A stretch of 47,795 nt of DNA, taken from positions 1 to 47,795 of the forward strand of contig DRBO01000022.1 of assembly GCA_011039385.1 (NCBI GenBank). Direction: 5' to 3'. The stretch comes from Chloroflexota bacterium (GTDB taxonomy: Bacteria; Chloroflexota; Anaerolineae; Anaerolineales; UBA11858). Position numbers and translations under genes: made by a program. Below the pieces are notes generated by a model that saw nothing but the letters and a program-made list of their open reading frames with translations, had not been told where the DNA came from and searched no databases. How positions within the stretch are numbered: position 1 is the stretch's first letter; the number at the start of each line of letters is the position of its first letter. Positions 438 through 46,090 of the stretch are shown piece after piece.

Positions 438-1736
438 ATGCCGTCACCCAATCCGCCACTGCGGTCCCTGAGAGTCAATTCCTATCTGATTCCCGCTTTC
501 GGACTGATCATGGCTCTGGTGCAATTGTTCTTCCCCTTTAAAAGCTGGGCCATCCTGGCTTCCTCCTTTCTCGGATTGACTCTGTTCTCATACATCTGGG
601 CCTGGAGTTTAAAGGGAAACATTTCCCTGGAAAGAGAAATGCGCTTCGGCTGGATGCAGGTAGGCGATCGGGTTCAGGAGCGGATCGGGGTTGAGAACGA
701 CAGCAAGTTGCCCGCCCTCTGGGTCAGGATCATTGACCATTCCTATATGCCAGGATACACAGCCAGTGCGATCGTTAATGTCCGCAGCCAATGGTACACA
801 CATTGGCACACTTTTGGGATTTGCGACCAACGCGGTATTTACACCCTGGGCCCGACCAGTCTTGAGACGCATGATCCGCTGGGAATCTTCACGGTCAGGA
901 TCGATTACAGCGAGACAGTCAACATGATGGTTGTTCCCCGGGTTGTTCCCCTGCCCCAGATTGAAATTGCCCCGGGTGGAAGGACTGGTGAAGGAAAATC
1001 AACCAGCACTGGGCTGGAAAGGACCATAGTCGCCGGGGGTGTCAGGGAATATATACCCGGGGACAGCCTGCGGTGGCTGCACTGGCCAACAACCGCCCGC
1101 CTGAATAAACCCTATGTACGCGTATTTGATTTCTCCCCAGCCAGCAATTGGTGGGTGCTGCTGGATATGGATCCAGCAGTCCATACAGGGGAAGGCCAGA
1201 ATTCAACAGAAGAATACAGTGTTATCCTGGCAGCTTCCCTGGTCCATGAAGGGCTGCAGCAAGGCAAAATGGCGGGTTTGATCGCCATGGGTGACGAGTT
1301 GATCTGGCATGTGCCAGACAGGGGAGATGCCCATCTGTGGAGAGTCCTGCGATCCCTGGCCCTTATCCGACCCACCGGCCCCCCGCTTCCAGAGATGTTG
1401 AAACACCTCCGCCTGACACTGGAACAGCGTACCAGTCTGGTGGTGATCACGCCTAACATGGATACTGAATGGGCCAACGAATTAGGCTTACTGCTCAGGA
1501 AAGGTATCGTACCCACTGTATTGCTCCTCAATCCTTCTGCCTTTGGCGGAACACAGGACCCCAACGCCATCCAGAATCGCTTGTTGAACATGAATATCAA
1601 ACACTACAACTTCAGTGACTCGCTTCAGGACCTGGCTCAATTTGAACCGCTGGGACAGGAACACCAACCCGGTAATCAAATGAGAGAATACGTTAAAACC
1701 CTCCCCAGGCAATCCAGCGAATGGAGAGCACTGTGA
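438..1736 (+). CDS. DUF58 domain protein (MoxR-system partner, vWA-like fold)
   Basis: 432-aa ORF with two N-terminal TM helices and the DUF58 hallmark GVREYIPGDSLRWLHWPTTARLNKPYVRVFD. It sits next to transglutaminase and MoxR genes. Confidence 0.85.
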   Translation: MPSPNPPLRSLRVNSYLIPAFGLIMALVQLFFPFKSWAILASSFLGLTLFSYIWAWSLKGNISLEREMRFGWMQVGDRVQERIGVENDSKLPALWVRIIDHSYMPGYTASAIVNVRSQWYTHWHTFGICDQRGIYTLGPTSLETHDPLGIFTVRIDYSETVNMMVVPRVVPLPQIEIAPGGRTGEGKSTSTGLERTIVAGGVREYIPGDSLRWLHWPTTARLNKPYVRVFDFSPASNWWVLLDMDPAVHTGEGQNSTEEYSVILAASLVHEGLQQGKMAGLIAMGDELIWHVPDRGDAHLWRVLRSLALIRPTGPPLPEMLKHLRLTLEQRTSLVVITPNMDTEWANELGLLLRKGIVPTVLLLNPSAFGGTQDPNAIQNRLLNMNIKHYNFSDSLQDLAQFEPLGQEHQPGNQMREYVKTLPRQSSEWRAL

Positions 1737-4165
1737 TGTTGGCTTCCATCCGCAAGTTCGCTGAGAAGAACTTGTCCAGGCAGATACTCAGGAACATCGC
1801 CTTGATCTATCTGCTGTTCATCCTGCTGGTCAACGTTCTGCGAGATTCCATCCAGGGAGTAGAAACCAGCCTCTTGACCCTGATGATCACCATGGGGCTG
1901 GTACTGGCGTGGGCGCTGGCGGTCTCTGAAATTGAAGAATGGAAAACCGGTTTGATCGCCTTTCTGAGTGGAGGTACGATCCTGGTGATTCGGATTGGCA
2001 GATTAGGCGACCTGATCTTTTCCTTGTTCCGGGAAATGTGGGGGTTAGGATCCCAAACTCTCTCCTATCTATCCGGGCATGGTGAGATTACCAGGTCCGA
2101 TGCTATCCCGGCAGGGATTTCCGAGCTTGGGTCCCGAATCGCCACCCTGGGTTCACGCCTGGGAGTCTGGATCCTGAGCCTGTTCCGAGGAAAACCAATC
2201 TACGATCCAGTTGCCACGGCATTTATCTGGGGCATCTTTGTCTGGTTGATTGCGGTCTGGGCGATGTGGATCACCATCCGCCATAAGAAACCTCTGTGGG
2301 GGATCATCCCCACCCTGGTGCTGACCAGCTTGAGCCTGGTTTATACCGGCACATCGGTCTACAACCTGGTTCCCATGTTGGGGATCATGATCGGTCTGGT
2401 GATAATGGGCAGGTACGATGCCCATGAGAACCAATGGAAATCAGAGCAGATCAAATTTGCCGGAATCATCCGGGAACGAATGGTGTTCTTGGCTGTGATC
2501 ATGGCCGTGGCGTTGATGCTGTTCGCGGCCATCAGCCCCTCAATTACAATCCGGGGCATCGTGGATTTCATTGACAGGATCACTTCTGATCATGTCAACG
2601 AAGATGACCTTGTCCGCTCTTTAGGACTAGAACCTGTCGGAAAAGAAGGTGCTGTAAGTGTGCTTGACAACCGCCAGAGCGGCGGCCTTCCCAATCGCCA
2701 CCTGATCGGCTCGGGAGAAGAGCTTGGCACCCAGCTGGTGATGATTATCCAGGTGCAGGATCTTAGCGGTCCCAGCCTGGAGGAAATCGATCCTGCAGAA
2801 CAGGTCTATTACTGGCGCAGCCTGACCTATGACCAATATGTAAGCAGGGGCTGGGTATCGCGGGACAGCATAATCCGGGAATACGCACCTGGACAGAGAA
2901 CCCTCTCCAACTGGTCTGATACCTATCAGATCATCCGCCAGAAAGTTGATACTGTGGAAGATCTAGATGGATTGCTGTTCAGTGCTGGCATCCCACTTAG
3001 TGCGGATCAAGATTTTGAAATTGCCTGGAGAGTCCAGAACACCAATGAATGGACCTTCGATATCTTTGGAGCCTCATTGGAGGCCGAATCCTACATCGTG
3101 GATTCGCTTCAGCCCCGGGCAAGTATAGAGGAACTTCAGGAAGCCGGACAGGATTACCCCCAATGGATCCGGAACCGCTACCTGGGCTTGCCGCCTACCG
3201 TACCGGATCGGGTAATCGGTCTGGCAAGAGACATCACCGCTACCGAACCCAATCCCTATGATCGGGCGCTGGCAATTGAGGGGTTTTTGCGCCGATTCCC
3301 CTACACCCTGGACCTTCCCCAACCCCCCATGGAACGGGATATCACAGATTATTTCCTGTTCAGTGCCAAACGGGGCTACTGCGATTATTACGCCACCGCC
3401 ATGGTGGTTCTATCCCGGGCAGCTGGCCTGCCAGCCCGTCTGGTAACAGGCTATATTGGGGGTTATTATGATCCAAATCTTGATGCTTACCTGGTAACGG
3501 CAGATCTTGCTCACGCCTGGCCAGAGATCTACTTCCCGGAGTACGGCTGGATCATTTTCGAGCCAACCGGCGGCAGGTCCGAGATCGAAAGGCCAGAAGG
3601 TCCAATACCTAAATTCGCCCAGGACTATCCCACCGCATTCGATCCCCTGGTCCAAGAAAAAGAACCCCTACCGGTAAACTGGTGGTTAGTCGGGCTGGGC
3701 TTCCTGATTGGAATTCCCCTGATCGGGTTCCTGGTCTACCTGGCGGATGACCTCTACCTCAAGCGTATGGTCCCCGATAAACAGTTCCAACGAGTCTTCC
3801 GGCGGGTGTACCGTTATGCCCGCTGGTTGGGCCTTGACACCAAACCCGGTGATACGCCGCACGAATTCAGCACCAAGCTGATCCACCAATTAACTCAATT
3901 TGGAAGAGGCAGCAAACAAGCAGAATGGCTTCTGTATGGTTCTCATATCATCCGGGAAATCACCAGGCAATATTATCTGGTCCTGTATAGCCCGGATCAG
4001 GGCGCCGGGATAAACAGTCAGGAAACAGCGATCCTCTTCCGCGATCTGCGGAGTCGTTTATGGTACCTGTGGCTGTTGATCAAGGCTTACCCTTACAGAA
4101 TACCGCGCTTCTTCTTGTGGGATTCCGCTCCCATGTTAATCAGTTCAAAGCCTAATAAGTCATAA
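1721..4165 (+). CDS. transglutaminase-like domain membrane protein (TgpA-like)
   Basis: 814-aa ORF with a multi-TM N-terminal half. The transglutaminase core carries the catalytic Cys context (KRGYCDYYATAMVVLSRAAGLPARLVTGY), followed by AHAWPEIYF and a C-terminal TM. An alternative start ATG at 1736 overlaps the DUF58 stop (TGATG). Confidence 0.85.
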   Translation: MESTVMLASIRKFAEKNLSRQILRNIALIYLLFILLVNVLRDSIQGVETSLLTLMITMGLVLAWALAVSEIEEWKTGLIAFLSGGTILVIRIGRLGDLIFSLFREMWGLGSQTLSYLSGHGEITRSDAIPAGISELGSRIATLGSRLGVWILSLFRGKPIYDPVATAFIWGIFVWLIAVWAMWITIRHKKPLWGIIPTLVLTSLSLVYTGTSVYNLVPMLGIMIGLVIMGRYDAHENQWKSEQIKFAGIIRERMVFLAVIMAVALMLFAAISPSITIRGIVDFIDRITSDHVNEDDLVRSLGLEPVGKEGAVSVLDNRQSGGLPNRHLIGSGEELGTQLVMIIQVQDLSGPSLEEIDPAEQVYYWRSLTYDQYVSRGWVSRDSIIREYAPGQRTLSNWSDTYQIIRQKVDTVEDLDGLLFSAGIPLSADQDFEIAWRVQNTNEWTFDIFGASLEAESYIVDSLQPRASIEELQEAGQDYPQWIRNRYLGLPPTVPDRVIGLARDITATEPNPYDRALAIEGFLRRFPYTLDLPQPPMERDITDYFLFSAKRGYCDYYATAMVVLSRAAGLPARLVTGYIGGYYDPNLDAYLVTADLAHAWPEIYFPEYGWIIFEPTGGRSEIERPEGPIPKFAQDYPTAFDPLVQEKEPLPVNWWLVGLGFLIGIPLIGFLVYLADDLYLKRMVPDKQFQRVFRRVYRYARWLGLDTKPGDTPHEFSTKLIHQLTQFGRGSKQAEWLLYGSHIIREITRQYYLVLYSPDQGAGINSQETAILFRDLRSRLWYLWLLIKAYPYRIPRFFLWDSAPMLISSKPNKS

Positions 4166-4170
4166 GAAGG

Positions 4171-5130
4171 ATGACCATGAAAAATATCAAAGACGTCTCG
4201 GATAAGATCATAAATAACATAAACCAGGTAATTCTCGGGAAGAACGATACCGTAGAGCTGGCCGTTATCTGTTTGCTCAGCAAGGGGCATTTGCTGATCG
4301 AGGATATTCCTGGCGTTGGGAAAACCATGTTAGCCCGCAGTCTGGCCCGCTCTCTGGACGCCTCATTTGGTCGCATCCAATTTACTCCGGATATGCTCCC
4401 AAGTGATATCACCGGGGTGTCAATCTACAACCAGGCTAACCAGGATTTCGAATACCGACCCGGCCCGGTGACATCGGAAATCGTTCTGGCTGACGAGATC
4501 AATCGAGCAACACCAAAAACCCAGTCCGCCCTGTTGGAAGCCATGCAGGAGAGGACAGTGACGGTTGACGGTGTCACCCATCAACTGCCAGAATTGTTCA
4601 TGGTCATAGCTACCCAGAATCCCATTGAGCATGAAGGCACCTTCCGACTACCAGAAGCCCAGCTGGACAGGTTTCTCATGCGAATCCGGCTTGGGTATCC
4701 CCAGCTCAACGATGAATTGAATATTCTGGATGGACAGCAATATCAGCACCCTATCGATGAATTGAAAGCAGTGGTGTCGGTTGAAGAAGTGCAGCAAGCT
4801 CAGGAAGCTGTCAAGGAGATTCATATCGCACCCCCGGTTAAACGCTATATCGTGGAAATGGTCCAGTACACCCGGGAACACAATGACGTTTACCTGGGAT
4901 CCAGTCCCCGCGGCAGCTTGGGTATCTACCGGGCCAGCCAGGCCAGGGCAGCCATCCGGGGGCGTGATTACGTCACGCCAGATGATATCCAGGGGATTGC
5001 AGAGCCGATCCTGGGCCACCGCCTGATCCTGGCGCCGGGTGCTCGGCTGCAAAACAGAAATGAAGACAACATCCTCGAAGAATTACTGCAAAGAGTCCAG
5101 GTTCCTGGCGGGGATATCTATTCCAAGTGA
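4171..5130 (+). CDS. MoxR-family AAA+ ATPase
   Basis: 319 aa with Walker A (GVGKT), Walker B (LADEINR), and the typical MoxR motifs ATQNPIEHEGTFRLPEAQLDRF and SPRGS. Confidence 0.9.
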   Translation: MTMKNIKDVSDKIINNINQVILGKNDTVELAVICLLSKGHLLIEDIPGVGKTMLARSLARSLDASFGRIQFTPDMLPSDITGVSIYNQANQDFEYRPGPVTSEIVLADEINRATPKTQSALLEAMQERTVTVDGVTHQLPELFMVIATQNPIEHEGTFRLPEAQLDRFLMRIRLGYPQLNDELNILDGQQYQHPIDELKAVVSVEEVQQAQEAVKEIHIAPPVKRYIVEMVQYTREHNDVYLGSSPRGSLGIYRASQARAAIRGRDYVTPDDIQGIAEPILGHRLILAPGARLQNRNEDNILEELLQRVQVPGGDIYSK

Positions 5131-5234: not shown

Positions 5235-5267
5235 AGAGACGAAGTCTCTTAAAAAGACTTCGTCTCT
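5235..5267. terminator. perfect 12-bp hairpin in a convergent intergenic region; candidate terminator of uncertain direction
   Basis: AGAGACGAAGTC-tcttaaaaa-GACTTCGTCTCT lies 4 nt from the stop of the 1469-aa gene. It is followed by AATTTTAAT on the plus strand and embedded in further CTTAAG-type palindromes (5211-5240). Confidence 0.4.
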
Positions 5268-5271
5268 AATT

Positions 5272-8200
5272 TTAATAATTCAATTCGTAACCCATCACCA
5301 TCACACCCAGGCTGAGAACTTCGCCAGCTTGCTGGAGTTTTTCCAGGTCAATAGTGTCCATGTTATCATCCATCGTGCCGCCAGTATCCCACCACTCTTC
5401 CCAGTGGACCCCAACAAAGGATGCCTCTGCAACCGGGACATTATTGCCTTCATTAAAGAGGATACTCAAATCTACCTGGCTGTCTGCTTTAGTGACCGGG
5501 ATTCCCAACTTCCTGGCAGAGGATTCAAACAGCTCAACCAGGCGCAGGCTGCCCTGGGTAGATAACATCACTTCCTCTCCCCCGCCCGCGCCTACACCCC
5601 GTATCCCGATTATGGCTTCAAGATCCAGGTACTTGGAGAACCCCCCTTTGGCCTGGAGGAACTTGGATATATCCGGGTATACCCATTCACCGCCTTCTTG
5701 CCCTTCCCCGGCATAAGCAATGAAGAGGAAGGTCCGGTTGGGCTGATAGCCTGATTCCTGCATAGTGCGGATCAGCTCCAGCATCAGGGCAACGCCAGAA
5801 GCATTATTGTTGGCTGCTTGAGGAGCGGATGCCCCCCTTATCAGAGGCGGGCTGTCATACTGGGCCATGACCACAACCAGCTTGTTATCCATCTGAGCTT
5901 TGGGATCTCCCTTGTTTCCAGGCAGGTGTCCGATCACGTTGCGGACTTCAAAGTCCTCCACAACACTTCCCTGGACAGTCATCGCAGCCTCAATTCCAGT
6001 AGGAATGATCAGGCATTCATCTTGTTTGAGGTCATCCACACGGATTTTCAGGGAGTTCACCTGGTAGCCCGTGCCTTCCAGCAAGTTATTAGCGACCTCA
6101 GTGCTGATCCGCAGGATGGGCGTATTCTGGCCGATGGTCTCAGTCGAACCAAAGGGGTTAAAGAAAGGAGATCGGGCAGACAGGGTGGTGCGCTGATTGA
6201 TGAGAGATTCATCTTCGGTGACAATCAACAAGCCATCTTTAGGGATATCATGGAGGATGCCTGCATCCCTTTCGTTCAGGACAACGACGATCTGCCCACT
6301 GAAATCCAACTCATCCAGGGCAGGGAAGTTCCGGAACCACTGTCCCGTCTGCATCAGGTCGCCCAATCCCAGAAAGACCATTTCTCCTTTTGCAGACCCC
6401 AAGTTCTGATAGTAACCGACAAATTCCACGAAATCCTCATGATAGACTAATTCAGGGCTGCCATCATAGAACTTCAAAGTTGGCTCCCGTGTCAGGTACT
6501 CGAATTCCCTGGTCCGGGTTTGAAAATAAGTAAATTCCTCTCCAGCCGGCTGCAGGCCCAGCGCCTCGAATTCCCCGGCGATATACGCTGCCGCTTGATC
6601 CATCCCCGCTGTACCCAGAGAGCGTCCTTCCCAGCGGGGATCAGATAGGATATCCAGGTAAGCGTACGCCCGCTCACCCTGGAAGCTTTCTGCCTGTTGG
6701 ATGAAAATTGCCGTCGATCCAGTGGTTCCCCTGAACCAGAAGAACACACCTGCCAGCAGGCCAAATACTGCCAGCGTATATTTGTTGATGATCAACCGGG
6801 TAGCTGCAATACCCACAGTTTCAATGAATCTGCGAATCCCTTCACCCAGGAAATTGAATCCAGTGATCGCTACAAAGAAAGCCCCGGCAGGATACAACGC
6901 AGTCCAGGGGTAGGAGCGAGCATACAGGCGGATATTGCTCAATAAGGCGCCCCATTCTGGAACATCAGAATAATGATAGGGCGGACCCCAGATCTCAATT
7001 TCCGCAAAAGCTCCCCCTCCGATGAAAATGCCGATAAAACCCAGCTCACCCAGCAGCATCAGCACGGCCCCCATTTCCAAAGAAAGGATCGAAACCAACC
7101 CCGGAATGATGTTGGGAAAAACGTGTTTGCCAAGGATCCTGCCTGAATGAGCGCCTGCTGCTTCAGCGCTTTCAATGAACAGCTGGGGCTTGATTTCCAG
7201 CACCTTGCTGCGCACATACTGCATGATCTCACTCCAACCTATAAAGCTCATGGCGATGATAAATGGTTGCATACCCTGGCGGATGCCAATCCCCAGGATC
7301 AGCACCATCACCAGCAGCAAAGCCGGGAAAGCCGCAATGGTTTCTGACGCCCCTAACACAAATCGGTCCAACCAGCTCCCTGAAAACCAGCCAGCCAGAG
7401 CACCCAGGAGGAAGCCAACCACCAGGCGAACAACTACAACAAAGATAGCCAGTGTGAATGTCTGCTGCGCGCCGGAAAGGATCAAGCTCATGATATCCCG
7501 ACCCAAGGGATCTGTTCCCCAAGGATAGACTTTGTCGGGCTTAAAAGGCGGCACAAGCAGCTCCCCGTCCTCAATAGTTAAGCCCTGGGTTTGGTAAGGA
7601 CTATGAGGGGACAGCTGGGGACTGAAAAACATGACCAGTGCTAAACTCGTTACGATAACCACGCCAATCAGCAGGGCGGGGTTTCCTAATGTGCCCTTAA
7701 GCCAGACCCGGAGCCGAGCCTTGCCCATTGCCAGCGTATCGTAGTAGGTAAACCCATCCTCTCTTTGATCAATAATTTCTCTAAAAGGGCTCTGACTGGC
7801 TTCTTTTTTCCCGGGCAGCCAGCGCAGCCAGGGTTTATCAGCCAAGAAAGTTCGAACATTCTTTATAAGGTTTTTCCAGAATCCCCAAAATCCTTTCTTC
7901 CCTCCCCGAACATTCGCCCCCTGATCCCGCAAGCGGGGGTCAATTAGTATATAAGACCAATCGAGGAATAAATTGACCAGGATGAACAGGATTCCCAGGC
8001 ACAGCGCCAGCCCGATAGTCAGGTCATCATCGCGATTGGAGATGGATTGCAGCAAGGTATAACCGAGTCCCTGCCAGCCAAAGAAATACTCCACTATCGG
8101 CAAACTGCTTAGGGCAAACCGCAAAGAAAGGCCGATTGTGGTCAGGACAGGAACAGCGGCATTCCGGGTGATATGAACTGCCATGACATAAATGGACCGC

Positions 8201-9681
8201 AAGCCCTTGCTGTAGGCAGTCCTGACATAATCCTGTTTGAGAATATCCTCAACCGTGATATAGGTGACCCGGGTAATTTGTGCCAGTGGTCTGGCTGCCA
8301 ACACCAAAACGGGAAGGATGAGATGATCATCCCAGCCAAATCCCCCTACCGGCAGCAAGGATTTACCATAGAACTGAGTCAGTTTGATCGTACCCATTTG
8401 CAGCAGCAGTGCCGCAAAGAAGCTGGGCACGGACACACCAACAATGGACACCATCAGGGCTGCCAGCGTGATCCCGGAGCGTCTTCCAGCGATTAATACA
8501 GCCAGAATCACGCCTACCACAGCTGAGACCAGCAGCGATACGCCCAGCAAACCCAGGCTGCGGATCAGGACGTCAGGGATGACTTCCACAACTGGTTTGG
8601 ACAGCAGAGAGACGCTCCCTGAACTGGTTTCCCCTAAATCCCCCCGCAAGGCATCAGAGGCATAATCCATGGTTTTAACAACGCTGTCCCCAGCCGCCTG
8701 TTTAAAAGGCACTCCCCTGGCCATATCCAAACCCAGGAAGCTGGCGTAGGTGATAAAAGCCAGGACTAAAAGCCCAAAGACCAGCCGGGGAAATAGGAAA
8801 GAAACCGACTGATTCAGACGGCGCAGGAAAGGAATATCATGTTCTGTTTTATCAGCGCTGTGATGAAAGCTCAACTTCCATCCTCCTTCCCCAATAACCC
8901 TGTTGTCCCGTATCAAGAAAAGATACCAGCCCAGCAGCAGGAACAGTACCACCAGCTCGGCCAGAATGATTAACCAATCTGTGTTAAGACCGGAGATAGC
9001 CTTCCCTCCTTGATAGATATGGATGGGGGTGATTCGAGAGATCTTCTCCAGGTCAGGATAGATATTGGCCAGGCCTACCAGCAAATAATTTCCAACCAGG
9101 GCTGCCCCGGTGAACATACTGGCCATGCGCGAGGATGGCAATACCTGGCTGAGCAGGATAGCCAGAAAGCCAAATAGAGCCAGCTGGGCTAGCAACGGCA
9201 GAAACGGTCGAGCTAATTCCAGGGCTGTGAGGTCCAACCCTGAAGCCCCCGCAGGAATGGCCCAGCTCAACCAGGCAATCGTCAGGAGTATGACCAGGGT
9301 TGCCAGGAAGCCCAGGACCCTGCCCCAGAATATCCCTGACCTGCCAGCCGGATAGGACAGGATCGGATCCGGGACGCCATCTCCCTCACCCTGGCTCAAC
9401 AGCTTGGCTCCCGCGCCAACAGCCAGGATGCCCATGATCACCATCATGATATTAAAGAAACAGACATCCAGGTAACCTTCCGGAGCAGAAAGAGAGGTAA
9501 AACTGCTCCCGAGGAAGGCCATCAGCTCCTCCGGGAAGGAAGCCAGATAACCAGAAAAATCTATCAGGGCAATGTCACTGTAAATGCCAACCATCAGCAG
9601 ACTGTAGACAGCCAGCCCAATGCCCCAACCAATGATAATTCCTCGAAATTTTCTTATAGTACGTGTGAACTCTACAAACAC
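5272..9681 (-). CDS. four-module fusion protein: ABC-2-type permease-like domain + OppB/DppB-like permease + OppC/DppC-like permease + extra TM + PA/M28 peptidase-like domain
   Basis: Uninterrupted 1469-aa ORF with a GTG start after GGGAGGG.
- aa 1-260: 6-TM ABC-2-like domain (degenerate E-x-E-x-GT...LLS-P-x-R region as QGEGDGVPDPILSYPAGRSG, ending FLIRD).
- aa ~285-586: BPD_transp_1 type with the EAA loop (DYVRTAYSKGL), ending LIDPRLR.
- aa ~660-955: OppC-like (YPWGTDPLGRDI, ESAEAAGA).
- aa 967-983: extra TM helix.
- aa ~990-1469: PA + M28-like region (NNNASGVALMLELIR, TFLFIAY). Confidence 0.8.
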   Translation of the reverse strand: MFVEFTRTIRKFRGIIIGWGIGLAVYSLLMVGIYSDIALIDFSGYLASFPEELMAFLGSSFTSLSAPEGYLDVCFFNIMMVIMGILAVGAGAKLLSQGEGDGVPDPILSYPAGRSGIFWGRVLGFLATLVILLTIAWLSWAIPAGASGLDLTALELARPFLPLLAQLALFGFLAILLSQVLPSSRMASMFTGAALVGNYLLVGLANIYPDLEKISRITPIHIYQGGKAISGLNTDWLIILAELVVLFLLLGWYLFLIRDNRVIGEGGWKLSFHHSADKTEHDIPFLRRLNQSVSFLFPRLVFGLLVLAFITYASFLGLDMARGVPFKQAAGDSVVKTMDYASDALRGDLGETSSGSVSLLSKPVVEVIPDVLIRSLGLLGVSLLVSAVVGVILAVLIAGRRSGITLAALMVSIVGVSVPSFFAALLLQMGTIKLTQFYGKSLLPVGGFGWDDHLILPVLVLAARPLAQITRVTYITVEDILKQDYVRTAYSKGLRSIYVMAVHITRNAAVPVLTTIGLSLRFALSSLPIVEYFFGWQGLGYTLLQSISNRDDDLTIGLALCLGILFILVNLFLDWSYILIDPRLRDQGANVRGGKKGFWGFWKNLIKNVRTFLADKPWLRWLPGKKEASQSPFREIIDQREDGFTYYDTLAMGKARLRVWLKGTLGNPALLIGVVIVTSLALVMFFSPQLSPHSPYQTQGLTIEDGELLVPPFKPDKVYPWGTDPLGRDIMSLILSGAQQTFTLAIFVVVVRLVVGFLLGALAGWFSGSWLDRFVLGASETIAAFPALLLVMVLILGIGIRQGMQPFIIAMSFIGWSEIMQYVRSKVLEIKPQLFIESAEAAGAHSGRILGKHVFPNIIPGLVSILSLEMGAVLMLLGELGFIGIFIGGGAFAEIEIWGPPYHYSDVPEWGALLSNIRLYARSYPWTALYPAGAFFVAITGFNFLGEGIRRFIETVGIAATRLIINKYTLAVFGLLAGVFFWFRGTTGSTAIFIQQAESFQGERAYAYLDILSDPRWEGRSLGTAGMDQAAAYIAGEFEALGLQPAGEEFTYFQTRTREFEYLTREPTLKFYDGSPELVYHEDFVEFVGYYQNLGSAKGEMVFLGLGDLMQTGQWFRNFPALDELDFSGQIVVVLNERDAGILHDIPKDGLLIVTEDESLINQRTTLSARSPFFNPFGSTETIGQNTPILRISTEVANNLLEGTGYQVNSLKIRVDDLKQDECLIIPTGIEAAMTVQGSVVEDFEVRNVIGHLPGNKGDPKAQMDNKLVVVMAQYDSPPLIRGASAPQAANNNASGVALMLELIRTMQESGYQPNRTFLFIAYAGEGQEGGEWVYPDISKFLQAKGGFSKYLDLEAIIGIRGVGAGGGEEVMLSTQGSLRLVELFESSARKLGIPVTKADSQVDLSILFNEGNNVPVAEASFVGVHWEEWWDTGGTMDDNMDTIDLEKLQQAGEVLSLGVMVMGYELNY

Positions 9682-9817
9682 GATCCCTCCCGAAATCTTC
9701 AGTGATCAAAATGCGGCTCTGCAATGTTATCCGGTTAGGAGTTCCCCTCGGCAATTAATGAGAAGGCCAGCAATACCCAAAATCGGAACATGATACTTGC
9801 TTCTGTGAAATTTCTCC

Positions 9818-11590
9818 TTAATATTCACCCAGGAAGATCACGCCATAAATGGACAACGTCAACACCGTATCCACAATCACTGCAGTCATGTAGTACCCCA
9901 GTGAAGAGGTCACAGAATTGCGGTGGCGCCGGCGCCATTCTGCTGTAGCGATACCTAGGCCGATAATGATGATCGGCACTCCAACCCGTAAAACTGATCC
10001 CAATCCTTGTGGGACATCCAGCCAGGCAGAAAAAGGCACATAGATCAATATGTCAGGCAGGAACAGCAGCTTGGAAACCTGGTAAGAGAGCAGCGCAAGC
10101 ACCACCAAGGCTATAGACAGGGGCTGAGTGACATCTTCATCGTTGCGGGCTAATCGCAAGGCAATCGTTATCACCAGCCCTATGGCCATCCAGGGGAAGG
10201 CAAAAGGGAAGAGCAGGATGCCAGTGATCGCTTCCAGTCCCCCTGAAAAGATCAGCGTAGAGAAATCACCCAGTGCAACCCGGTCTAATCTCTCCCTGGC
10301 GATAGGAGCAGTGGTGGCATAAAAGACCCGATTCCCAGCAAAGCCTTCCTGCCAGATCAAATGCAGATTTCCTCCAGCATCAAGGGAGATGCTCGGGTTC
10401 TGAGAGATCTCAGTTGTGCGCGTTCCCACAACGTAGCTATCATAGACCCCTTCCTCAAAGATCCCTACCATGATCTGCATATGGAAGTCGAGTCGATTGA
10501 CCTGGCGGGCAGAAACAGCGACGAGCATTACGTCTTGGGCCGGGGTTGCCAACGTCTGGGGATTAAGGATATGATCGGTGCTCAGGTAATCCTCAGGAGG
10601 TGCAGGGACAGCCTGGGAGAGAGACAAGGACCCTTGATAGGGCTGAAGGAAATCCTCGCTTACCGGGAAAATCGTTACCAGTCCTCGGCGGGCTTGGCCC
10701 ATTTCACTCTTTGGAAATACCAGGTATTCCGTGATCGCAGTCCCGGCTTCCAGACCAGTCTGCCGCAAAATGGACCAGAACAAGTATACCTGGCTGTCAG
10801 TGATACTTATCACAGGGCCATCCAATCTATTTCCCAGGGCAACCTTGATGGTGGCCATTGCTTCTCCTTCTAACGGGAAAGAAGTATCTTCATAAATTGA
10901 AGCATAGAACAGCTGATCTCCCTGCATCCAGGCGACATGAGTCCCTTCCTGATCTGCTATCAGCGCAGGTAATTCCCCCTCTGCTACCATTAACTTCGGA
11001 GGTGAAATGAGATTTCCTTGTTTTGATATTCTAGTGAAATAGAGGGAATTGGCATTACCATCCTCCCAGACGATGGTCAAATTTCCTTGATCATCCTCAG
11101 TTCCTTCAAATTGGCTGACCCTTTCCGTCCCCATGGAAACCAGTTTGGGAGTTGATGTGACCTCAGCATCCGCGTTGATAATGGCATGCCACAGCTCCCA
11201 GTTTTCCTGGGTTGATTCCCGGGCAGCCCACACCAGGTGCAGTTCTTCTCCAATCGCAATCACTTGGGGGGAGCGCACATAAGGAGCCAACTCAAGATCC
11301 AGCTCCTGGTCCATGACAATCCCGGCCTCCTGGTCGAGGCGAATATACTGGAAGGAATTCCCGGTTTCTCCATTCTGCCCGGGAATGACTACCTGGATCA
11401 GGTCTCCCTCGGGGTTTACAGCCGCAGAAGGAGAGCCAATGGCCTCGGCGGAGAGGAGCATCCCCCGGCTGAAGTCACCAGCTGGTTTGCGGGTTTTCTG
11501 CCCCTCGCTCCCACAGCCAGTCAGCAGAATGACTGCCAGCAGGATAAAAGGGATAATTGGTGTTTTGTGTATTATTCTGGTCTTAATCAT
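9818..11590 (-). CDS. hypothetical lipoprotein with a beta-propeller-like repeat ectodomain and a C-terminal multi-TM domain
   Basis: Start re-called to ATG 11590 (MIKTRIIHK...), preceded by AAGGA, because the upstream 21 codons of the track ORF cover a terminator hairpin. Lipobox LLTGC. Repeated strand motifs LHLVW, LTIVW, THVAW, VYLFW and LHLIW resemble sialidase/BNR-like propellers. The last ~150 aa contain 4-5 TM helices. Confidence 0.6.
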   Translation of the reverse strand: MIKTRIIHKTPIIPFILLAVILLTGCGSEGQKTRKPAGDFSRGMLLSAEAIGSPSAAVNPEGDLIQVVIPGQNGETGNSFQYIRLDQEAGIVMDQELDLELAPYVRSPQVIAIGEELHLVWAARESTQENWELWHAIINADAEVTSTPKLVSMGTERVSQFEGTEDDQGNLTIVWEDGNANSLYFTRISKQGNLISPPKLMVAEGELPALIADQEGTHVAWMQGDQLFYASIYEDTSFPLEGEAMATIKVALGNRLDGPVISITDSQVYLFWSILRQTGLEAGTAITEYLVFPKSEMGQARRGLVTIFPVSEDFLQPYQGSLSLSQAVPAPPEDYLSTDHILNPQTLATPAQDVMLVAVSARQVNRLDFHMQIMVGIFEEGVYDSYVVGTRTTEISQNPSISLDAGGNLHLIWQEGFAGNRVFYATTAPIARERLDRVALGDFSTLIFSGGLEAITGILLFPFAFPWMAIGLVITIALRLARNDEDVTQPLSIALVVLALLSYQVSKLLFLPDILIYVPFSAWLDVPQGLGSVLRVGVPIIIIGLGIATAEWRRRHRNSVTSSLGYYMTAVIVDTVLTLSIYGVIFLGEY

Positions 11591-11606
11591 CAACCTGTTC
11601 CTTAGA

Positions 11607-11641
11607 TAATAAAAATACTGCGGATGCCCTGGCATCCGCAG
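11607..11641 (-). terminator. rho-independent terminator/attenuator after oppC-like gene
   Basis: On the minus strand, CTGCGGATGCC-AG-GGCATCCGCAG (11-bp perfect inverted repeat) is followed by TATTTTTATTAT. It lies 42 nt after the oppC-like stop and 17 nt before the next start codon. Confidence 0.7.
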
Positions 11642-11682
11642 CGAGTTTTTCACACTCAGGACGAACTTGGTTTCTGTGATCC

Positions 11683-12693
11683 TTATTTGTCTATCTGTCG
11701 AGGATCGAACGCGTCCCGGAGGCCATCGCCCAGGAAGTTAAAAGCGAGGGTAGTCAAGGAGAGCGCAATGGCAGGTAACAACACCTGGTTGGGATAAGAG
11801 CGCAGTGCCTGAACACCCTCCTGGATCATAATGCCCCAACTGGGAGTGGGCGCGTTGACGCCCAGGCCAATGAAACTCAAGAATGCCTCCGTGAAGATAT
11901 AACCGGGAATAGCCATTGTTTCCGCCACGATCAGCGGTCCTAAAATATTAGGCAGCAGGTGCTTGAACATGATCCGGGTATCATTAGCGCCCAGGGCATG
12001 CGCTGCTTCCACAAATTCCATCTGTTTGTAGGACAGCACCTGCCCCCGGGCAATGCGGGCCATTCCCAGCCAGTTGATCAGCCCGATGGCAATGAACAGG
12101 AACAGCAAACCTCCCATCTGGTTATTCAAGTTGATAAAAGCCCCCCCCATACCTTCTCCCCCACTGCGGCTGGCGATGGCTTTGAAGTAGGTTTGCAAAA
12201 GAATAACTACGATTAGAAACGGGAAGGCCCACAGGAAATCCACCACCCGCATCATGAGGTTGTCCACCCTGCCGCCAGCATAACCCGAGATCATCCCATA
12301 GACAATCCCGATCAATAAACTAACCAAGGATCCTGCAAATGCGATCGTCAGCGAAACACGGGCGCCGAATATTGTCCTGGTTAAGAGATCCCGGCCCAGA
12401 TGATCTGCCGCGAGAGGAAATTTATCACTGAAATTGGCGTAATTCTCCGCTCCTTCCGGCATTATGAACAGCATCCATTTCGGAATAGCGTTATTGGCTA
12501 TTAAATCCTGTTCGGCATAGGTATAGGGTGTGAGCTGTTTCGCAAATACTGCCACCAGGACCATGAGGATAATGAAGATCCCGCTGATAACTGCCAATTT
12601 GTTCCTCAGCAGCCTATCCATGGATTTCTGCCACAAACTGCGTTCTTTTTGTTGGGTTATCGATGAGTTCAATTCTAAATCTGCAACTGCCAT
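11683..12693 (-). CDS. peptide/nickel ABC transporter permease (OppC/DppC type)
   Basis: 336 aa with the N-terminal OppC_N-type segment, LGRDLLTR, EAA loop (EFVEAAHALGA), and the C-terminal NFLGDGLRDAFDPR. Confidence 0.9.
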   Translation of the reverse strand: MAVADLELNSSITQQKERSLWQKSMDRLLRNKLAVISGIFIILMVLVAVFAKQLTPYTYAEQDLIANNAIPKWMLFIMPEGAENYANFSDKFPLAADHLGRDLLTRTIFGARVSLTIAFAGSLVSLLIGIVYGMISGYAGGRVDNLMMRVVDFLWAFPFLIVVILLQTYFKAIASRSGGEGMGGAFINLNNQMGGLLFLFIAIGLINWLGMARIARGQVLSYKQMEFVEAAHALGANDTRIMFKHLLPNILGPLIVAETMAIPGYIFTEAFLSFIGLGVNAPTPSWGIMIQEGVQALRSYPNQVLLPAIALSLTTLAFNFLGDGLRDAFDPRQIDK

Positions 12694-12726
12694 ACAATCC
12701 TCCCAGCCACCTTGGAGTAGTTTTGA

Positions 12727-13737
12727 TTAATCATAACGAATGCGTGGATCCAGCCAGGCATAGGTGATATCCACCACTAAATTGGCGATCACCAGGACCA
12801 CGGCGTAGAGCAGGGTCACGCTGGTGATCACTTGATAATCGCGGTTCCCCACGCTGGTCACGAAATGCTTGCCCATGCCATTAATGCCGAAGATCTGCTC
12901 CACGATGAACGTCCCTGTCAGCAAAGCTGCAAAAGCCGGTCCCAGAATGGTCACTACCGGGATCAGGCTGTTCTTGAGAGCGTGGATAACGATCACTGCC
13001 CGCTCCCTGAGGCCTTTGGCCCGGGCGGTGCGGATGTAATCCTCACCAATCACCTGCAGCAGGCTGGCCCGTGTCAACCGGGCGATGCCTGCCGCCGAGC
13101 CGGTGCCCAGGGCAAAGACAGGCATGATTGCGTGGCTGAAGAATTCCTTATTTAATGCAGTGGGCAGGAAACCCAATAAATAGGGTGGTTTGGCACCCCA
13201 ACCTGCCACCGGGAACCAGCCCAGTATCAAGGCAAAGATCCAGATCAGGATTGGTGCCAGGACCATGTTGGGGATGGACACGAACATCACTGCCCCGAAG
13301 GTGGTGGTGTAATCGATCCAACTGTTTTGATTGAGGGCAGCAATGATCCCGGCCGGGATGCCGATGATGATCGCCAGCAGGAGTGACATAAATCCCAATT
13401 GGGCTGAGACTGGCAGGGTGATCTTGATGATATCCGCCACAGTTTGTCCCCGGAAATGATAGGATGGACCGAAGTCACCCCGAATCACCCCCCGGGATCC
13501 GCCTTCCTCGCCCAAAATATCGTCTCCTATCATATAAGATAGATACTGTTTCCACATCGGCCAATCCAGGTGGTATTTGGCTTCCAGGTTGGCGACAATG
13601 GTGGGCGGCAGGCTGCGGTCGCCCGCAAAATCAAACGGGCCGCCCGGGATAGCCTGCATGAGCACAAAAGTGAACAGGCTGATCGCGATTAATACCGGGA
13701 TAAATTGCAGAATTCTGCGAAATATGTAGCGGGCCAT
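12727..13737 (-). CDS. peptide/nickel ABC transporter permease (OppB/DppB type)
   Basis: Start re-called to ATG 13737 (MARYIFRRILQFIP...), which is the canonical OppB N-terminus. EAA loop DYIRTARAKGL; C-terminal LDPRIRY. The 18 upstream codons of the track ORF are the translated hairpin at 13761-13789. Confidence 0.9.
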   Translation of the reverse strand: MARYIFRRILQFIPVLIAISLFTFVLMQAIPGGPFDFAGDRSLPPTIVANLEAKYHLDWPMWKQYLSYMIGDDILGEEGGSRGVIRGDFGPSYHFRGQTVADIIKITLPVSAQLGFMSLLLAIIIGIPAGIIAALNQNSWIDYTTTFGAVMFVSIPNMVLAPILIWIFALILGWFPVAGWGAKPPYLLGFLPTALNKEFFSHAIMPVFALGTGSAAGIARLTRASLLQVIGEDYIRTARAKGLRERAVIVIHALKNSLIPVVTILGPAFAALLTGTFIVEQIFGINGMGKHFVTSVGNRDYQVITSVTLLYAVVLVIANLVVDITYAWLDPRIRYD

Positions 13738-13751
13738 AAAATAATTCCTTT

Positions 13752-13789
13752 GTGAAAATTGGAGACTGGAGGAGGAACCTCCAGTCTCC
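13752..13789 (-). terminator. intra-operon hairpin plus U-tract between the SBP gene and oppB (partial terminator / mRNA stabiliser)
   Basis: GGAGACTGGAGG-ttcct-CCTCCAGTCTCC forms a perfect 12-bp GC-rich stem, followed by AATTTTCAC on the minus strand. Confidence 0.6.
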
Positions 13790-13813
13790 AAGAGTTGCTA
13801 CAACTAGTCTGGA

Positions 13814-15604
13814 TTATTGAGCTGCCAGTTTGGCATCCATGTCAACTGTCCAGTTGTAGATGTCAATGCCGCCGATGGCCGGGAAGTTCCGGGTCAGCCA
13901 AGGCTTGCTGACGTTTACGCTGGTGTAGTGATAGATCGGGGCGTAAGCGGTTTCAACTTCAGTCAGCAGTCTCTCAGCTTCAGCGTACATCTCAGCTCGC
14001 TTTGCTGGATCAGGTTCGATACCAGCCGCTGCGGTCAGCGCATCAAATTCACCAGCTTCACGGCGAAGGCGATTGGCGCCTGCATCAGCGTTGAAGACTT
14101 CGTGGACCCAGTTGTTCTCATCCGGGTAGTCCGCGCACCAGCCGAGGCGCCAAATATGAGGCATATCCTCGAGCGGGGTGGTGTTCTTGAGGGTGTCCAG
14201 ATAGACAGCCCATTCCTGGTTCTCAACACGCACTGTGACACCGAGCACGTCAGCCCACATCTGCTGGATGGCAGCGGCGATCCGGGCGTGGCCCTCACTG
14301 GTGTTGTGCATCAACACCACATCCAGGGCGTTGAACTCATCGATGGTCATGCCCTTTTCATCCAGGTACTCCTGGAGGGAAGCTTTAGCAGCTGCGGCAT
14401 CGTAGCCCAAGCCAACTGTTCCTGGTTCGGGAGCGCCGAAGATTCCGGGAGGCGCAAAGGAGGTGGCAGGAATCTGCCCGCCCTTCAACACGTTGTCGGC
14501 CAAGCTCTGGCGGTCGATCGCCTGGGAGAATGCCCGGCGGACGCGCACGTCATCCAGGGGCGGTTTGCTGTTGGTGAAGCCGTAGTAGTAGGTGCAGGGC
14601 ACTGGAGCGATGCGGAGTTCTTCGCTGAGGACCGGATCAGCCTTGACGCGGTCCATCTCGGGGAGAGGAACGCCAGTGCTGTCCAGCTCATTGTTCTCGT
14701 AGAGAGCGAATGAGGTGGAGGCTTCCGTGATCATCACGAAGTCTACGCGCTCGATCTGAACACTGTCAGCGGCGATCCACAGGGGGTTCTTGACCAGGCT
14801 CAGCTCACCACCGTGAATCCAGCTTTCTAGGACGTAAGGACCGCTGGTAACGATCAGGCCAGCCTCAGTCCACTTGTCGCCCCACTCATCAATGGCCCAG
14901 GCCGGCATCGGTTTCACGATCCACATAGTGCTGATGCCATCGAAGTAGCCAGCAGGATATTCAAGGGTGAATTCAACCGTGGTTTCATCAAGAGCTTTCA
15001 CGCCCAGGTCATCAATGGTCAGCTCTTCATCGCCGCCGTTGATGGCTGCAGCATTCTTGATCACGTAGGTAACATAGGCATAGTCAGAGCCTGTGGCGGG
15101 GTCAACGGTTCTCTTCACACCATATTCCACATCGTAGGCATTGACAAAGCGGGGGTTACCGTCTGCGTCAACTTCCTGCGTGGTTTCGCCAGAAATTGGA
15201 TCATATTTCACCCAGGGAACGTCGTCCCGCAGGTGGAAGGTCCAGGTCTGCTCGCCGTCAGCGTTCTCGGCGATGTCCCAGGAGGTTGCCAGGTAAGGCT
15301 CAACTTCGTTGGTGACCGGGTTGAAATTGGTCAGACCAATGAAGAGGTTCTCCTGAATATCCACGGAGGTGGTGTCTGTGGCCAGGGAAGGATCCAGGGT
15401 TGGGGGTTCAGTGCCCAGGTTCAGATTCAGAGTAACGGGGATCTCTCCCGCTTCCGCTTCTTTCTCGACGACAACGGTCTCAATAATTGTCTCGCCCTCT
15501 TTCTCGACGATGACGGTCTCGACCACTGTCTCTCCGCCGCAGGCGGAAAGCACAAGCGCGCCGACGATCAGAACGGAAAATAGTGCTAATAATCTTTTCC
15601 TCAT
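13814..15604 (-). CDS. ABC transporter substrate-binding lipoprotein, family 5 (OppA/DppA type)
   Basis: 596 aa. Signal peptide plus lipobox (LVLSAC), a repetitive E/T/V-rich tether, then a typical SBP_bac_5 core (GPYVLESW..GGELSLVKNPLW). Confidence 0.9.
   Translation of the reverse strand: MRKRLLALFSVLIVGALVLSACGGETVVETVIVEKEGETIIETVVVEKEAEAGEIPVTLNLNLGTEPPTLDPSLATDTTSVDIQENLFIGLTNFNPVTNEVEPYLATSWDIAENADGEQTWTFHLRDDVPWVKYDPISGETTQEVDADGNPRFVNAYDVEYGVKRTVDPATGSDYAYVTYVIKNAAAINGGDEELTIDDLGVKALDETTVEFTLEYPAGYFDGISTMWIVKPMPAWAIDEWGDKWTEAGLIVTSGPYVLESWIHGGELSLVKNPLWIAADSVQIERVDFVMITEASTSFALYENNELDSTGVPLPEMDRVKADPVLSEELRIAPVPCTYYYGFTNSKPPLDDVRVRRAFSQAIDRQSLADNVLKGGQIPATSFAPPGIFGAPEPGTVGLGYDAAAAKASLQEYLDEKGMTIDEFNALDVVLMHNTSEGHARIAAAIQQMWADVLGVTVRVENQEWAVYLDTLKNTTPLEDMPHIWRLGWCADYPDENNWVHEVFNADAGANRLRREAGEFDALTAAAGIEPDPAKRAEMYAEAERLLTEVETAYAPIYHYTSVNVSKPWLTRNFPAIGGIDIYNWTVDMDAKLAAQ
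15461..15538 (-). repeat. imperfect tandem duplication of 39 bp inside the SBP gene (linker repeat)
   Basis: 15461-15499 (tttctcgacgacaacggtctcaataattgtctcgccctc) versus 15500-15538 (tttctcgacgatgacggtctcgaccactgtctctccgcc). These encode ETVVETVIVEKEG / ETIIETVVVEKEA directly after the lipobox Cys. Confidence 0.8.
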
Positions 15605-15729
15605 GGTTGTTCTTCTCCTTCTAAATGTGTCTGCAATTACTTGCTAACAAAAGTAAGTCTGAGCGGCATCACCTCCTTACCAGTAGATTCCCTCGCCTTA
15701 AGGATACGAGTGAATTGCGAGGGGATATA

Positions 15730-16734
15730 TCAGAGCATTTCTTCCTGGGCCTTTTTTGTGAAATGACAGGCAACCCAGTGTCCTGGTGTCTTTTCTTCAA
15801 AGGGTGGATCCTCAACCTTGCAGATATCTTGCGCTATTGGACAGCGGGTGTGGAAGCGGCAGCCAGAAGGCGGTTTCGCGGGGCTTGGCACATCACCTTC
15901 CAGGATGATCCGCTTGCGCTGGCGCTCTTTGACTGGATCCGGGATCGGTACAGCCGACAGCAGTGCGATGGCATAGGGGTGCATTTTATTATAAAAGAGT
16001 TCATCCTTATCGGCAAGTTCAACCAACTTGCCCAGATACATGACTGCAATCCTGTCAGAGATATGCCTCACCATGGACAGATCGTGAGCGATAAACAGGT
16101 AAGTCAAATCGAATTTTTCCTGCAGTTCTTCCAGCAGGTTGACCACCTGGGCCTGAACAGAGACATCCAGGGCAGAAATGGGTTCATCGCAGACAATGAA
16201 ATTCGGATTCAATGCCAAAGCCCGGGCAACGCCAATCCTCTGTCGCTGTCCGCCGGAAAATTCGTGGGGGTAGCGTTTGATGAAAAACGGATTCAAGCGC
16301 ACCAGGTTGAGCAGCTCCTGCACTCGTTCTAAACGTTCCTTGGCCGTACCGATCTTATGGATATCCAGTGGTTCGCCGATGATATCTCCAATCGTCATCC
16401 GGGGATTGAGCGAAGCGTAAGGATCCTGGAAGATGATCTGCATTTCACGGCGCAGTCTGCGCAGATCGCTTTCTCCCATGGTGGTGAGGTCTTCGCCGTC
16501 ATAATAAACCTTCCCGGCCGTGGGTTCGTGGAGCTGCAGGATGGTTCTGCCCGTGGTGGATTTACCGCAGCCGCTTTCCCCTACCAGACCCAAGGTCTCA
16601 CCGTGTTTAATGTCAAAGCTGATACCATCAACAGCCTTGACCGCGCCAACTTGGCGCTGGATAATAACGCCCTGGGTGATGGGAAAATGTTTAACCAGTT
16701 TTTCTACGCGTACCAATGAGTTGTTTTCAGCCAT
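15730..16734 (-). CDS. peptide ABC transporter ATP-binding protein (OppF/DppF type)
   Basis: 334 aa with Walker A (GESGCGKST), signature (FSGGQRQR), Walker B ([12 protein letters not shown]), and the C-terminal oligopeptide-type Cys-containing tail. Its ATG overlaps the oppD stop (TAATG). Confidence 0.9.
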
Positions 16735-46014: not shown

Positions 46015-46090
46015 CCTTCAAACAACTGAGTTTATCCATCCAATCCATCCTTCTGAATGCGGCAGTCAGGTTCAATCAAAGTATCCCCGG

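Follow-up and report, generated by a model that had tools for sequence, protein, structure and literature searches.

A fused Opp-type permease with a tethered, catalytically degenerate PA/M28 ectodomain in an uncultured Anaerolineales bacterium

Here we describe a gene on a 47,795-nucleotide (nt) stretch of DNA (the window; contig DRBO01000022.1 of assembly GCA_011039385.1) from a Chloroflexota bacterium of the Anaerolineales lineage UBA11858, whose product joins in one chain of 1469 amino acids (aa) an ABC-2-type (ATP-binding cassette, exporter-type) membrane domain, an OppB-like and an OppC-like permease module (OppB' and OppC'), one extra transmembrane (TM) helix, and an extracytoplasmic domain with the fold of PA-containing M28 peptidases. 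This fusion is a genuine conserved membrane protein of uncultured Anaerolineales, its peptidase fold has lost all five metal ligands, and its permease modules are under the strongest constraint. Its features are as follows, with nucleotides numbered by position in the window and residues by position in the fusion.

5272-9681, minus strand: the fusion open reading frame (ORF), 1469 aa, GTG start, no interruption, stop codon at 5272-5274; order ABC-2 membrane domain, OppB', OppC', extra helix, PA/M28 pseudo-peptidase ectodomain
9685-9691, minus strand: Shine-Dalgarno-like GGGAGGG, ending 3 nt before the GTG (read from the sequence)
8887-9681, minus strand: N-terminal ABC-2-type six-helix membrane module, aa 1-265 (Pfam PF12679)
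9337-9396, minus strand: eroded motif in the predicted cytoplasmic loop between helices 2 and 3 (TM2-TM3) of the ABC-2 module, aa 96-115, SQGEGDGVPDPILSYPAGRS
7912-8796, minus strand: OppB-like permease module, aa 296-590 (Pfam, NCBIfam, Foldseek)
8146-8250, minus strand: EAA loop of OppB', aa 478-512
7702-7911, minus strand: basic cytoplasmic linker between OppB' and OppC', aa 591-660 (mean conservation 0.42; low AlphaFold confidence)
6808-7701, minus strand: OppC-like permease module, aa 661-958 (Pfam, NCBIfam, Foldseek)
7102-7206, minus strand: EAA loop of OppC', aa 826-860
6724-6807, minus strand: extra transmembrane helix, aa ~963-986, taking the chain outside (hydropathy and AlphaFold)
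5275-6723, minus strand: extracytoplasmic PA-containing M28 fold, catalytically degenerate, aa 987-1469 (Pfam, AlphaFold, Foldseek)
5701-5865, minus strand: former active-site motifs AQYD, ANNNASG, and GEG (alignments to M28 enzymes)
5235-5267, no strand assigned: hairpin with a 13-bp stem and T-runs on both sides, just past the fusion stop and between convergent genes (consensus scan only)

The four modules and the extra helix had been proposed in a sequence-only reading of this DNA and were borne out by Pfam, NCBIfam, hydropathy, AlphaFold2, and Foldseek. Searches with profile hidden Markov models detected two stretches of BPD_transp_1 (145.5 bits against a cut-off of 26.4, with the best stretch at aa 390-585), a Peptidase_M28 domain at aa 1248-1456 (E = 5e-11), and ABC2_membrane_2 at aa 24-222 (30.2 bits against a cut-off of 27.2); among the families expected by that reading, OppC_N stayed below its threshold (aa 667-699, 20 bits against 23.9) and the Pfam PA family gave no match at E <= 0.01. 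OppB-type models of NCBIfam fell on aa 335-589 and OppC/NikC-type models on aa 664-954, but none of the named Opp/Dpp/Nik/Gsi/Sap/Cnt equivalogs was reached: all 25 NCBIfam models listed were under their cut-offs, the top score was 168.5 bits against an equivalog cut-off of 350 (Opp2B), and the nearest models, those of peptide and nickel permeases, were all far under threshold. The motifs DYVRTAYSKGL, YPWGTDPLGRDI, and ESAEAAGA are all present in the translation.

Hydropathy resolves three blocks of ~6 helices and a single peak at aa 963-981. An AlphaFold2 model of aa 270-1469, built with 83 aligned sequences, shows two helical bundles, a helix at aa 967-986 (model residues 698-717), and then an alpha/beta domain; its mean predicted local distance difference test (pLDDT) score is 76, mostly above 85 in the ectodomain, and its predicted template modelling (pTM) score is 0.53. 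In Foldseek searches, the membrane part matched electron cryomicroscopy chains of DppB/DppC and OppB/OppC (E ~1e-9) and the ectodomain matched 2EK8, PaAP, BSAP, the transferrin receptor, and glutamate carboxypeptidase II (GCPII) (E ~1e-16), so that the ectodomain is assigned to the M28 fold by both Pfam and Foldseek, and not to the bilobed fold of periplasmic binding proteins. The putative PA part would be a ~155-aa beta-rich insert (aa ~1086-1240), which aligns with PA-containing M28 structures over ~500 columns. In the AlphaFold2 model the chain closes with an M28 helix at model residues 1177-1196 of 1200, and the C-terminal helical dimerisation domain of M28B proteins (transferrin receptor, GCPII) is absent after the M28 fold. 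OppB and OppC have both termini in the cytoplasm; this homology and the positive-inside distribution of charges together place the M28-like domain outside the cell, as had been proposed.

The whole chain is conserved in other genomes. A word-indexed protein search of JGI, ENA, and Logan assemblies found ~16-19 independent full-length clusters of 1440-1471 aa with 56-87% identity, of which 16 full-length relatives were used in later alignments, and 1469 stop-free codons in DNA of 52% GC cannot be explained by chance. Ratios of nonsynonymous to synonymous substitution (dN/dS; Nei-Gojobori), calculated per module against an 87%-identical orthologue (locus L085), were 0.23 for ABC-2, 0.12 for OppB', 0.07 for OppC', 0.14 for the extra helix, and 0.14-0.18 for the parts of the ectodomain, which means that every module is under purifying selection.

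To describe the state of the M28 fold, we number positions after the Aeromonas aminopeptidase, whose metal ligands we take to be His97, Asp117, Glu152, Asp179, and His256, with Glu151 as the general base, and count column occupancies over 120 homologues.

His97 position: Gln in 106 of 120 family members and His in none; Gln in the window and its clade (AQYD)
Asp117 position: Asp in 104 of 120; Asn in the window and its clade (14 sequences), where the bridging Asp has become Asn in ANNNASG
Glu151-Glu152 position: one Glu followed by Gly in 119 of 120; the same in the window and its clade (GEG)
Asp179 position: mostly Asp or Glu in the family; Gly in the window
His256 position: Arg, Gly, or variable in the family; Gly in the window and its clade

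The window protein is thus substituted at all five di-zinc ligand positions, and the wider family keeps at most two. A HMMER alignment to the Vibrio/Aeromonas aminopeptidase chain (positions 105-159) sets the window's ANNNASG on GADDDASG and its AYAGE-G on AYAAEEVG. In a further alignment, intact M28 domains that score strongly in Pfam retain H.D, DD/DN.SG, EE, D, and H, whereas the window protein and the relative P0077 do not; an aminopeptidase sequence served in that alignment as a guide row only, and the conclusions rest on the tool-derived sequences and the HMMER alignments. Judged by these substitutions, the M28 domain is a pseudo-peptidase and not a working di-zinc aminopeptidase, and the peptide-processing machine that had been suggested for this gene loses its basis with the catalytic metal ligands. 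The remnants of the active-site motifs are nonetheless the best-conserved columns of the ectodomain among the 120 homologues, which argues for a retained pocket with a noncatalytic role; the ectodomain is most likely to bind or dock a ligand.

The core of the architecture, OppB'-OppC'-helix-PA/M28 without the ABC-2 module, is ~1200 aa long and is far from rare: it occurs in at least 115 species representatives and forms a large Anaerolineae family that is already present in databases. Our protein search returned ~100 proteins of ~1160-1370 aa, mostly close to 1200 aa, that cover ~80% of the query, carry BPD_transp_1 and Peptidase_M28, and, where the database gives a name, are called "ABC transporter permease subunit" from Chloroflexi or Anaerolineae. 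A scan with an ectodomain profile of one genome per GTDB species gave 115 confirmed loci, nearly all of them in bins of Anaerolineales, Anaerolineaceae, Caldilineaceae, or Thermoflexia and a few probably from mis-binned contigs, and OppB', OppC', and the ectodomain occur together and in the same order in all 79 loci that were fetched. An exhaustive ectodomain search gave 110 representatives at E <= 1e-30. The search for the domain order in other genomes thus showed OppB'-OppC'-M28 to be widespread, but ABC-2 stands in front of it only in the clade closest to the window (L001/L009, L003, L004, L006, L007, L010, and L027). Elsewhere the N-terminus of the core carries nothing (the ~1200-aa forms), TPR repeats (as in P0075), or an ABC_tran domain (P0283, P0297, and P0343, of 1443-1530 aa); these fused ATPase-like domains are 24-29% identical to both ABC-2-type and Opp-type ATPases, and their Walker A, signature, and Walker B-Glu motifs have degenerated, which makes them pseudo-ATPases on the same core. 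A further relative, P0272 (1679 aa, JGI metagenome), has a degenerate M28 domain followed by a second one with all five metal ligands. Searches of the full-text literature brought up only general comparators (GlnPQ and OpuA) and no paper describing the architecture, and public entries carry generic names only.

Some members of the family are duplicated. The OppB'-OppC'-M28 gene is repeated in tandem in L033, L036, L037, L043, L069, and L070, and several genome bins contain two copies on separate contigs, one for each of two paralogous clades. An ancestor with only OppC and M28, suggested by the 820-aa P0300, was rejected since this entry covers only part of a 1200-aa protein; P0376 (841 aa) is perhaps a true OppC-M28 form. 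The ectodomain search also retrieved giant membrane proteins of 1500-2180 aa (P0298, P0313, and ~30 other representatives), which are distant ectodomain relatives in another architecture; in P0298 and P0313, the two that were scanned, DUF418 and PA occur together with a pair of M28 domains that look intact and a Peptidase_MA_2 region.

The permease modules are where constraint is strongest (dN/dS 0.07-0.12). In the 120 homologues, whose overall identity is only ~50%, the EAA-loop patterns D.VRTA..KGL...H..RNAA.P of OppB' and IESA.A.G....RI...H..PN of OppC' are at least 90% conserved. Both modules are only ~25-27% identical to the canonical OppB and OppC encoded in the same window and are therefore no recent copy of them. 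In five relatives (L021, L024, L030, L032, and L041) a lone OppD-type ATPase gene (ABC_tran and oligo_HPY) lies directly downstream of the fusion, and its motifs in L024 are canonical (GESGCGKT, LSGGQ, and IIADEP). Because the EAA loops are conserved, some relatives have this OppD-like ATPase in cis, and an OppD/OppF pair is encoded upstream in the window, we argue that the fusion is predicted to be still a component of an ATP-driven Opp-type transporter; the Foldseek matches to Dpp/Opp permease chains, the ATPase-like domains fused to some relatives, and the full Opp sets beside the fusion in ~20 related loci also count in favour. Among the genes downstream in L021 and L024 there is no binding-protein gene, those further on being unrelated housekeeping genes, and such minimal loci of fusion plus ATPase speak for an ectodomain that may replace the binding protein.

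The ABC-2 module has a different history. Its nearest relatives are stand-alone PF12679 permeases of 278-280 aa (57-59% identity) that lie directly behind an ABC ATPase gene in two-gene operons of Anaerolineales (L083 and L084), and since L083 shares its genome bin with L004, a locus with a fused copy, the module appears to have arisen by duplication. The fused modules diverge faster, with mutual identity down to 33%, and ABC-2 is the least conserved structured module of the chain as well as the one with the highest dN/dS. The module of the window keeps 72 of the 85 conserved membrane residues of the stand-alone permeases. The TM2-TM3 loop motif KDEE.G.LDL..YP.SR, by contrast, is ~100% conserved in 60 stand-alone relatives, but each of its residues is kept in only 5-11 of 16 fused modules; the window has SQGEGDGVPDPILSYPAGRS, where the 87%-identical orthologue still has KDEEDGVLDLILSYPAGRS. 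This loop is cytoplasmic if the N-terminus is inside, and solved ABC-2 (type V) exporters have a coupling helix between helices 2 and 3; the module itself has no sequence match in the PDB. From topology and general knowledge we infer that the eroded loop would be the ATPase-coupling element and that coupling may have been lost repeatedly after the fusion. Unlike the stand-alone permeases, the fusion has no cognate ABC-2 ATPase gene adjacent to it, and among the subset of window ORFs that were scanned the only other ATPase is of the CbiO type. Given the erosion of the loop motif in the window and in most fused relatives, the module is probably no longer an exporter half, and the earlier picture of an exporter and an importer combined in one chain gives way to that of a clade-specific add-on, joined to an importer permease, with an eroded cytoplasmic-loop motif.

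On the minus strand the fusion is the last gene of an array that reads, in order, binding protein 2, OppD, OppF, binding protein 1, OppB, OppC, X, and fusion. Pfam labels for the Opp set were taken from the orthologous locus L001 (ABC_tran and oligo_HPY, SBP_bac_5, and BPD_transp_1).

17970-19868, minus strand: second family-5 binding-protein gene ahead of oppD, 632 aa, lipoprotein-like (ORF; SBP_bac_5 in L001)
11683-17729, minus strand: canonical Opp set, upstream of the fusion (ORFs)
16734-17729, minus strand: OppD, with intact Walker A, signature, and Walker B
15730-16734, minus strand: OppF, with intact Walker A, signature, and Walker B
13814-15604, minus strand: binding protein 1 (SBP_bac_5 in L001)
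12727-13791, minus strand: canonical OppB (BPD_transp_1 in L001)
11683-12693, minus strand: canonical OppC (BPD_transp_1 in L001)
11617-11642, minus strand: terminator-like hairpin, 11-bp stem and T-rich tail, between oppC and X (consensus scan)
9818-11590, minus strand: X, a 590-aa lipoprotein-like beta-propeller with five C-terminal membrane helices, directly upstream of the fusion

It had been noted correctly that no ATPase or binding-protein gene immediately adjoins the fusion and that OppD and OppF lie upstream; the gene sits behind a complete Opp set on the same strand and is paired with X, a neighbour that had gone unmentioned. A full OppDF-binding protein-OppBC set adjoins the fusion in the window and in ~20 related loci. 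The array of the window comprises two binding proteins and two permease sets with only one ATPase pair. The product of 17970-19868 may be the binding protein that serves the fused permease, and similar orphan binding-protein genes occur no more than 10 kb from the fusion in L002, L015, L022, L025, L033, L052, L056, and L075; the frequency of such orphan family-5 genes nearby speaks for an ectodomain that may assist a binding protein. Since hairpins lie between oppC and X and past the fusion stop, X and the fusion may form a transcription unit of their own.

Gene X was called as an ORF of 611 aa (9818-11653), whereas its homologues are called at 590 aa; its start is probably Met22 (11590), and the hairpin at 11617-11642 falls inside the extra N-terminal stretch of the longer ORF. 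X matches no Pfam family. Its AlphaFold model (pLDDT 87, pTM 0.83) shows a signal/lipobox segment followed by a beta-propeller and, at the C-terminus, five membrane helices; Foldseek returned only generic propeller enzymes and lectins. An X profile located the gene next to the fusion, on one strand or the other, at ~30 loci in the paralogous clade to which the window protein belongs, and at none in the second paralogous clade, whose members are orphan or tandemly duplicated. X is a conserved neighbour and putative partner of the fusion. In L032 a 317-aa PD40 (TolB-like) beta-propeller (6820-7773, plus strand) occupies the place of X between canonical oppC and the fusion. No similarity was found between X and a BNR-like protein near the stand-alone ABC-2 operon of L084, so that kinship was rejected.

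Several known systems share parts of this architecture. Opp/Dpp transporters (PepT, Transporter Classification 3.A.1.5; Mycobacterium tuberculosis OppABCD, Escherichia coli DppBCDF/OppBCDF) resemble it in that (i) there are two BPD_transp_1 domains with EAA loops; (ii) the first helix of OppC' is of the OppC_N type and the modules match solved DppB/C and OppB/C chains; and (iii) Opp-type ATPases with the oligo_HPY extension are encoded near the fusion. It departs from them by having both membrane domains in one chain, by adding the extra helix, the 480-aa ectodomain, and the six-helix ABC-2 module, and by scoring far under every NCBIfam equivalog cut-off. PA-domain M28 enzymes (Aneurinibacillus AM-1, 2EK8; Bacillus subtilis BSAP/YwaD, 6HC6; Pseudomonas aeruginosa PaAP, 8AC7) have the same fold, domain order, and PA insert inside M28, with target-normalised Foldseek TM-scores of up to 0.68, yet these are soluble or secreted enzymes with an intact His-Asp-Glu-Asp-His di-zinc site, whereas the membrane-tethered ectodomain of the fusion lacks all five ligands. 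The transferrin receptor, a noncatalytic M28B protein among the top Foldseek hits and the nearest analogue of the tethered fold, is likewise a membrane-tethered PA and M28 pair, no longer catalytic and used for binding; it has one N-terminal anchor and a C-terminal helical dimerisation domain, whereas the fusion ends with the M28 fold, which is anchored to a transporter. Overall, the fusion would work most like an Opp/Dpp importer with a tethered extracytoplasmic domain. In GlnPQ and OpuA, an extracytoplasmic domain is covalently tethered to the membrane domain of a type I importer as it is here, but that domain has the classical bilobed binding-protein fold and demonstrably delivers substrate (PMC8025302, PMC11065425), while the tethered domain of the fusion has a PA/M28 peptidase fold and a putative binding role.

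Starting from what was observed directly, namely the architecture, its conservation, the loss of metal ligands, the erosion of the loop, and the gene neighbourhoods, we consider it an evenly balanced proposition that the fusion supplies the membrane part of an Opp/Dpp-type (type I) transporter peculiar to Anaerolineae, with a noncatalytic, ligand-holding ectodomain, a decaying ABC-2 domain, and X as a partner. In the scheme that we infer, which covers import as the activity, OppD/OppF as the ATPases, a receptor function, and the nature of the substrate, OppB' and OppC' would form the translocation pathway within a single chain, and Opp-type ATPases, in the window most likely the upstream OppD/OppF acting in trans, would supply the energy. 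The extra helix would move the C-terminus outside, where only a few linker residues would keep the PA/M28 fold at the membrane surface, and this dead domain would hold or dock a ligand beside the permease, either acting itself as the receptor or offering a separate binding protein a place to dock. X would possibly join the ectodomain in ligand binding or docking. The ABC-2 domain would be a late addition confined to one clade, copied from an ATPase-coupled exporter permease and by now an accessory membrane anchor.

Bilobed substrate-binding proteins are generally regarded as a requirement of type I ABC importers. A further-reaching claim, which we hold to be doubtful, is that the family represents a new class of type I importer in which a pseudo-aminopeptidase receptor, perhaps with X, replaces the bilobed binding protein, here with a decaying exporter domain added. 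If true, a dead peptidase tethered to a fused permease would widen the known routes by which substrates are fed to type I importers, and this large, vertically inherited family would provide a clear instance of a transporter that has co-opted a pseudo-enzyme. Anaerolineae are abundant filamentous bacteria of sludge, sediments, and soils that degrade peptides and debris, and a so far unrecognised system for uptake or envelope functions, present in over 100 of their species, would matter for their nutrition. With its range of forms (nothing, TPR, degenerate ATPase, or ABC-2), the N-terminus would also offer a natural series for the gain and subsequent decay of modules in ABC transporters.

Several observations weigh against a type I transporter with a ligand-holding ectodomain. 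Many members, especially those of the second paralogous clade, have no ATPase, binding protein, or X nearby, and the ATPases would therefore have to act in trans; the degenerate ATPase-like domains fused to some relatives might mean that the family has departed from ordinary transport; and a second binding-protein gene is often near, so that the ectodomain need not replace the binding protein. Moreover, in the window a terminator-like hairpin divides the pair of X and fusion from the OppDF operon, the pTM of the overall model is only 0.53, and the role of the eroded loop as a putative coupling element comes from topology and general knowledge, the sequence search of the PDB having given no homologue.

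Two alternatives dispense with import. By analogy with FtsEX, which acts via the catalytically dead domain of EnvC, ATP-driven movement of the permease might be passed to the dead ectodomain and X and so control the remodelling of the cell wall or of surface proteins. The pseudo-enzyme ectodomain, the conserved membrane-anchored beta-propeller next to it, the frequent absence of a binding-protein gene, and the recurrent MoxR-DUF58-transglutaminase-like neighbours would all suit such mechanotransmission; we nevertheless think it improbable, given that type I importer folds are not known to be used in this way, that the EAA loops and the permease core show the conservation of ordinary importers, and that a complete Opp set is often next door. 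We also regard as unlikely that the fusion is a relic that moves no substrate and serves as a membrane scaffold or sensor with a permease fold. Orphan copies without ATPase or binding-protein genes, the degenerate ATPase-like domains of some relatives, and the degeneration of both the peptidase and the ABC-2 loop are consistent with this idea, but purifying selection peaks on precisely the permease modules, the EAA loops are nearly invariant, and one subclade has a canonical dedicated ATPase in cis.

A much weaker candidate is the processing machine, in which an active M28 aminopeptidase would trim peptides at the mouth of the importer and a working exporter half would complete the device. Fold and topology agree with it, and the second M28 domain of P0272, with its five ligands, indicates that trimming coupled to a permease exists in the family. 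For the window protein we hold this to be very unlikely: the metal-ligand positions are substituted throughout, position 97 is never His in the 120 homologues, the ABC-2 loop is eroded, and no ABC-2-type ATPase gene is found among the window ORFs examined. That separate genes were merged by a lost stop codon or a collapsed frameshift is hardly credible and was rejected, for although the ABC-2 part is called as its own 231-aa gene in the close relative L001/L009, the homologous frame there crosses the junction unbroken, a frame change slightly upstream being what separates the two; X is split on this long-read contig as well, a sister long-read bin has many broken genes, and the ~16-19 other independent assemblies yield proteins of 1440-1471 aa with purifying selection across all modules.

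L001/L009 is an 83-92%-identical relative, in which the ABC-2 module (9301-10001) is only 59-60% identical and frame-broken; this break could be a long-read error, true decay of the module, or both. On the other side of the fusion, the window contains a plus-strand cluster (438-5130) of DUF58, an 814-aa transglutaminase-like membrane protein, and a MoxR AAA+ protein. A MoxR-DUF58-transglutaminase-like cluster lies beside the fusion, in varied orientations, in at least 18 loci, among them L008, L015, L018, L022, L025, L028, L033, L052, L056, and L062, and this adjacency may reflect a functional link or mere lineage synteny. Farther away, at 44450-47032 on the minus strand, an energy-coupling factor (ECF)-type CbiM(+PDGLE)-CbiQ-CbiO module for cobalt/nickel uptake, the source of the CbiO-type ATPase mentioned above, is unrelated to the fusion.

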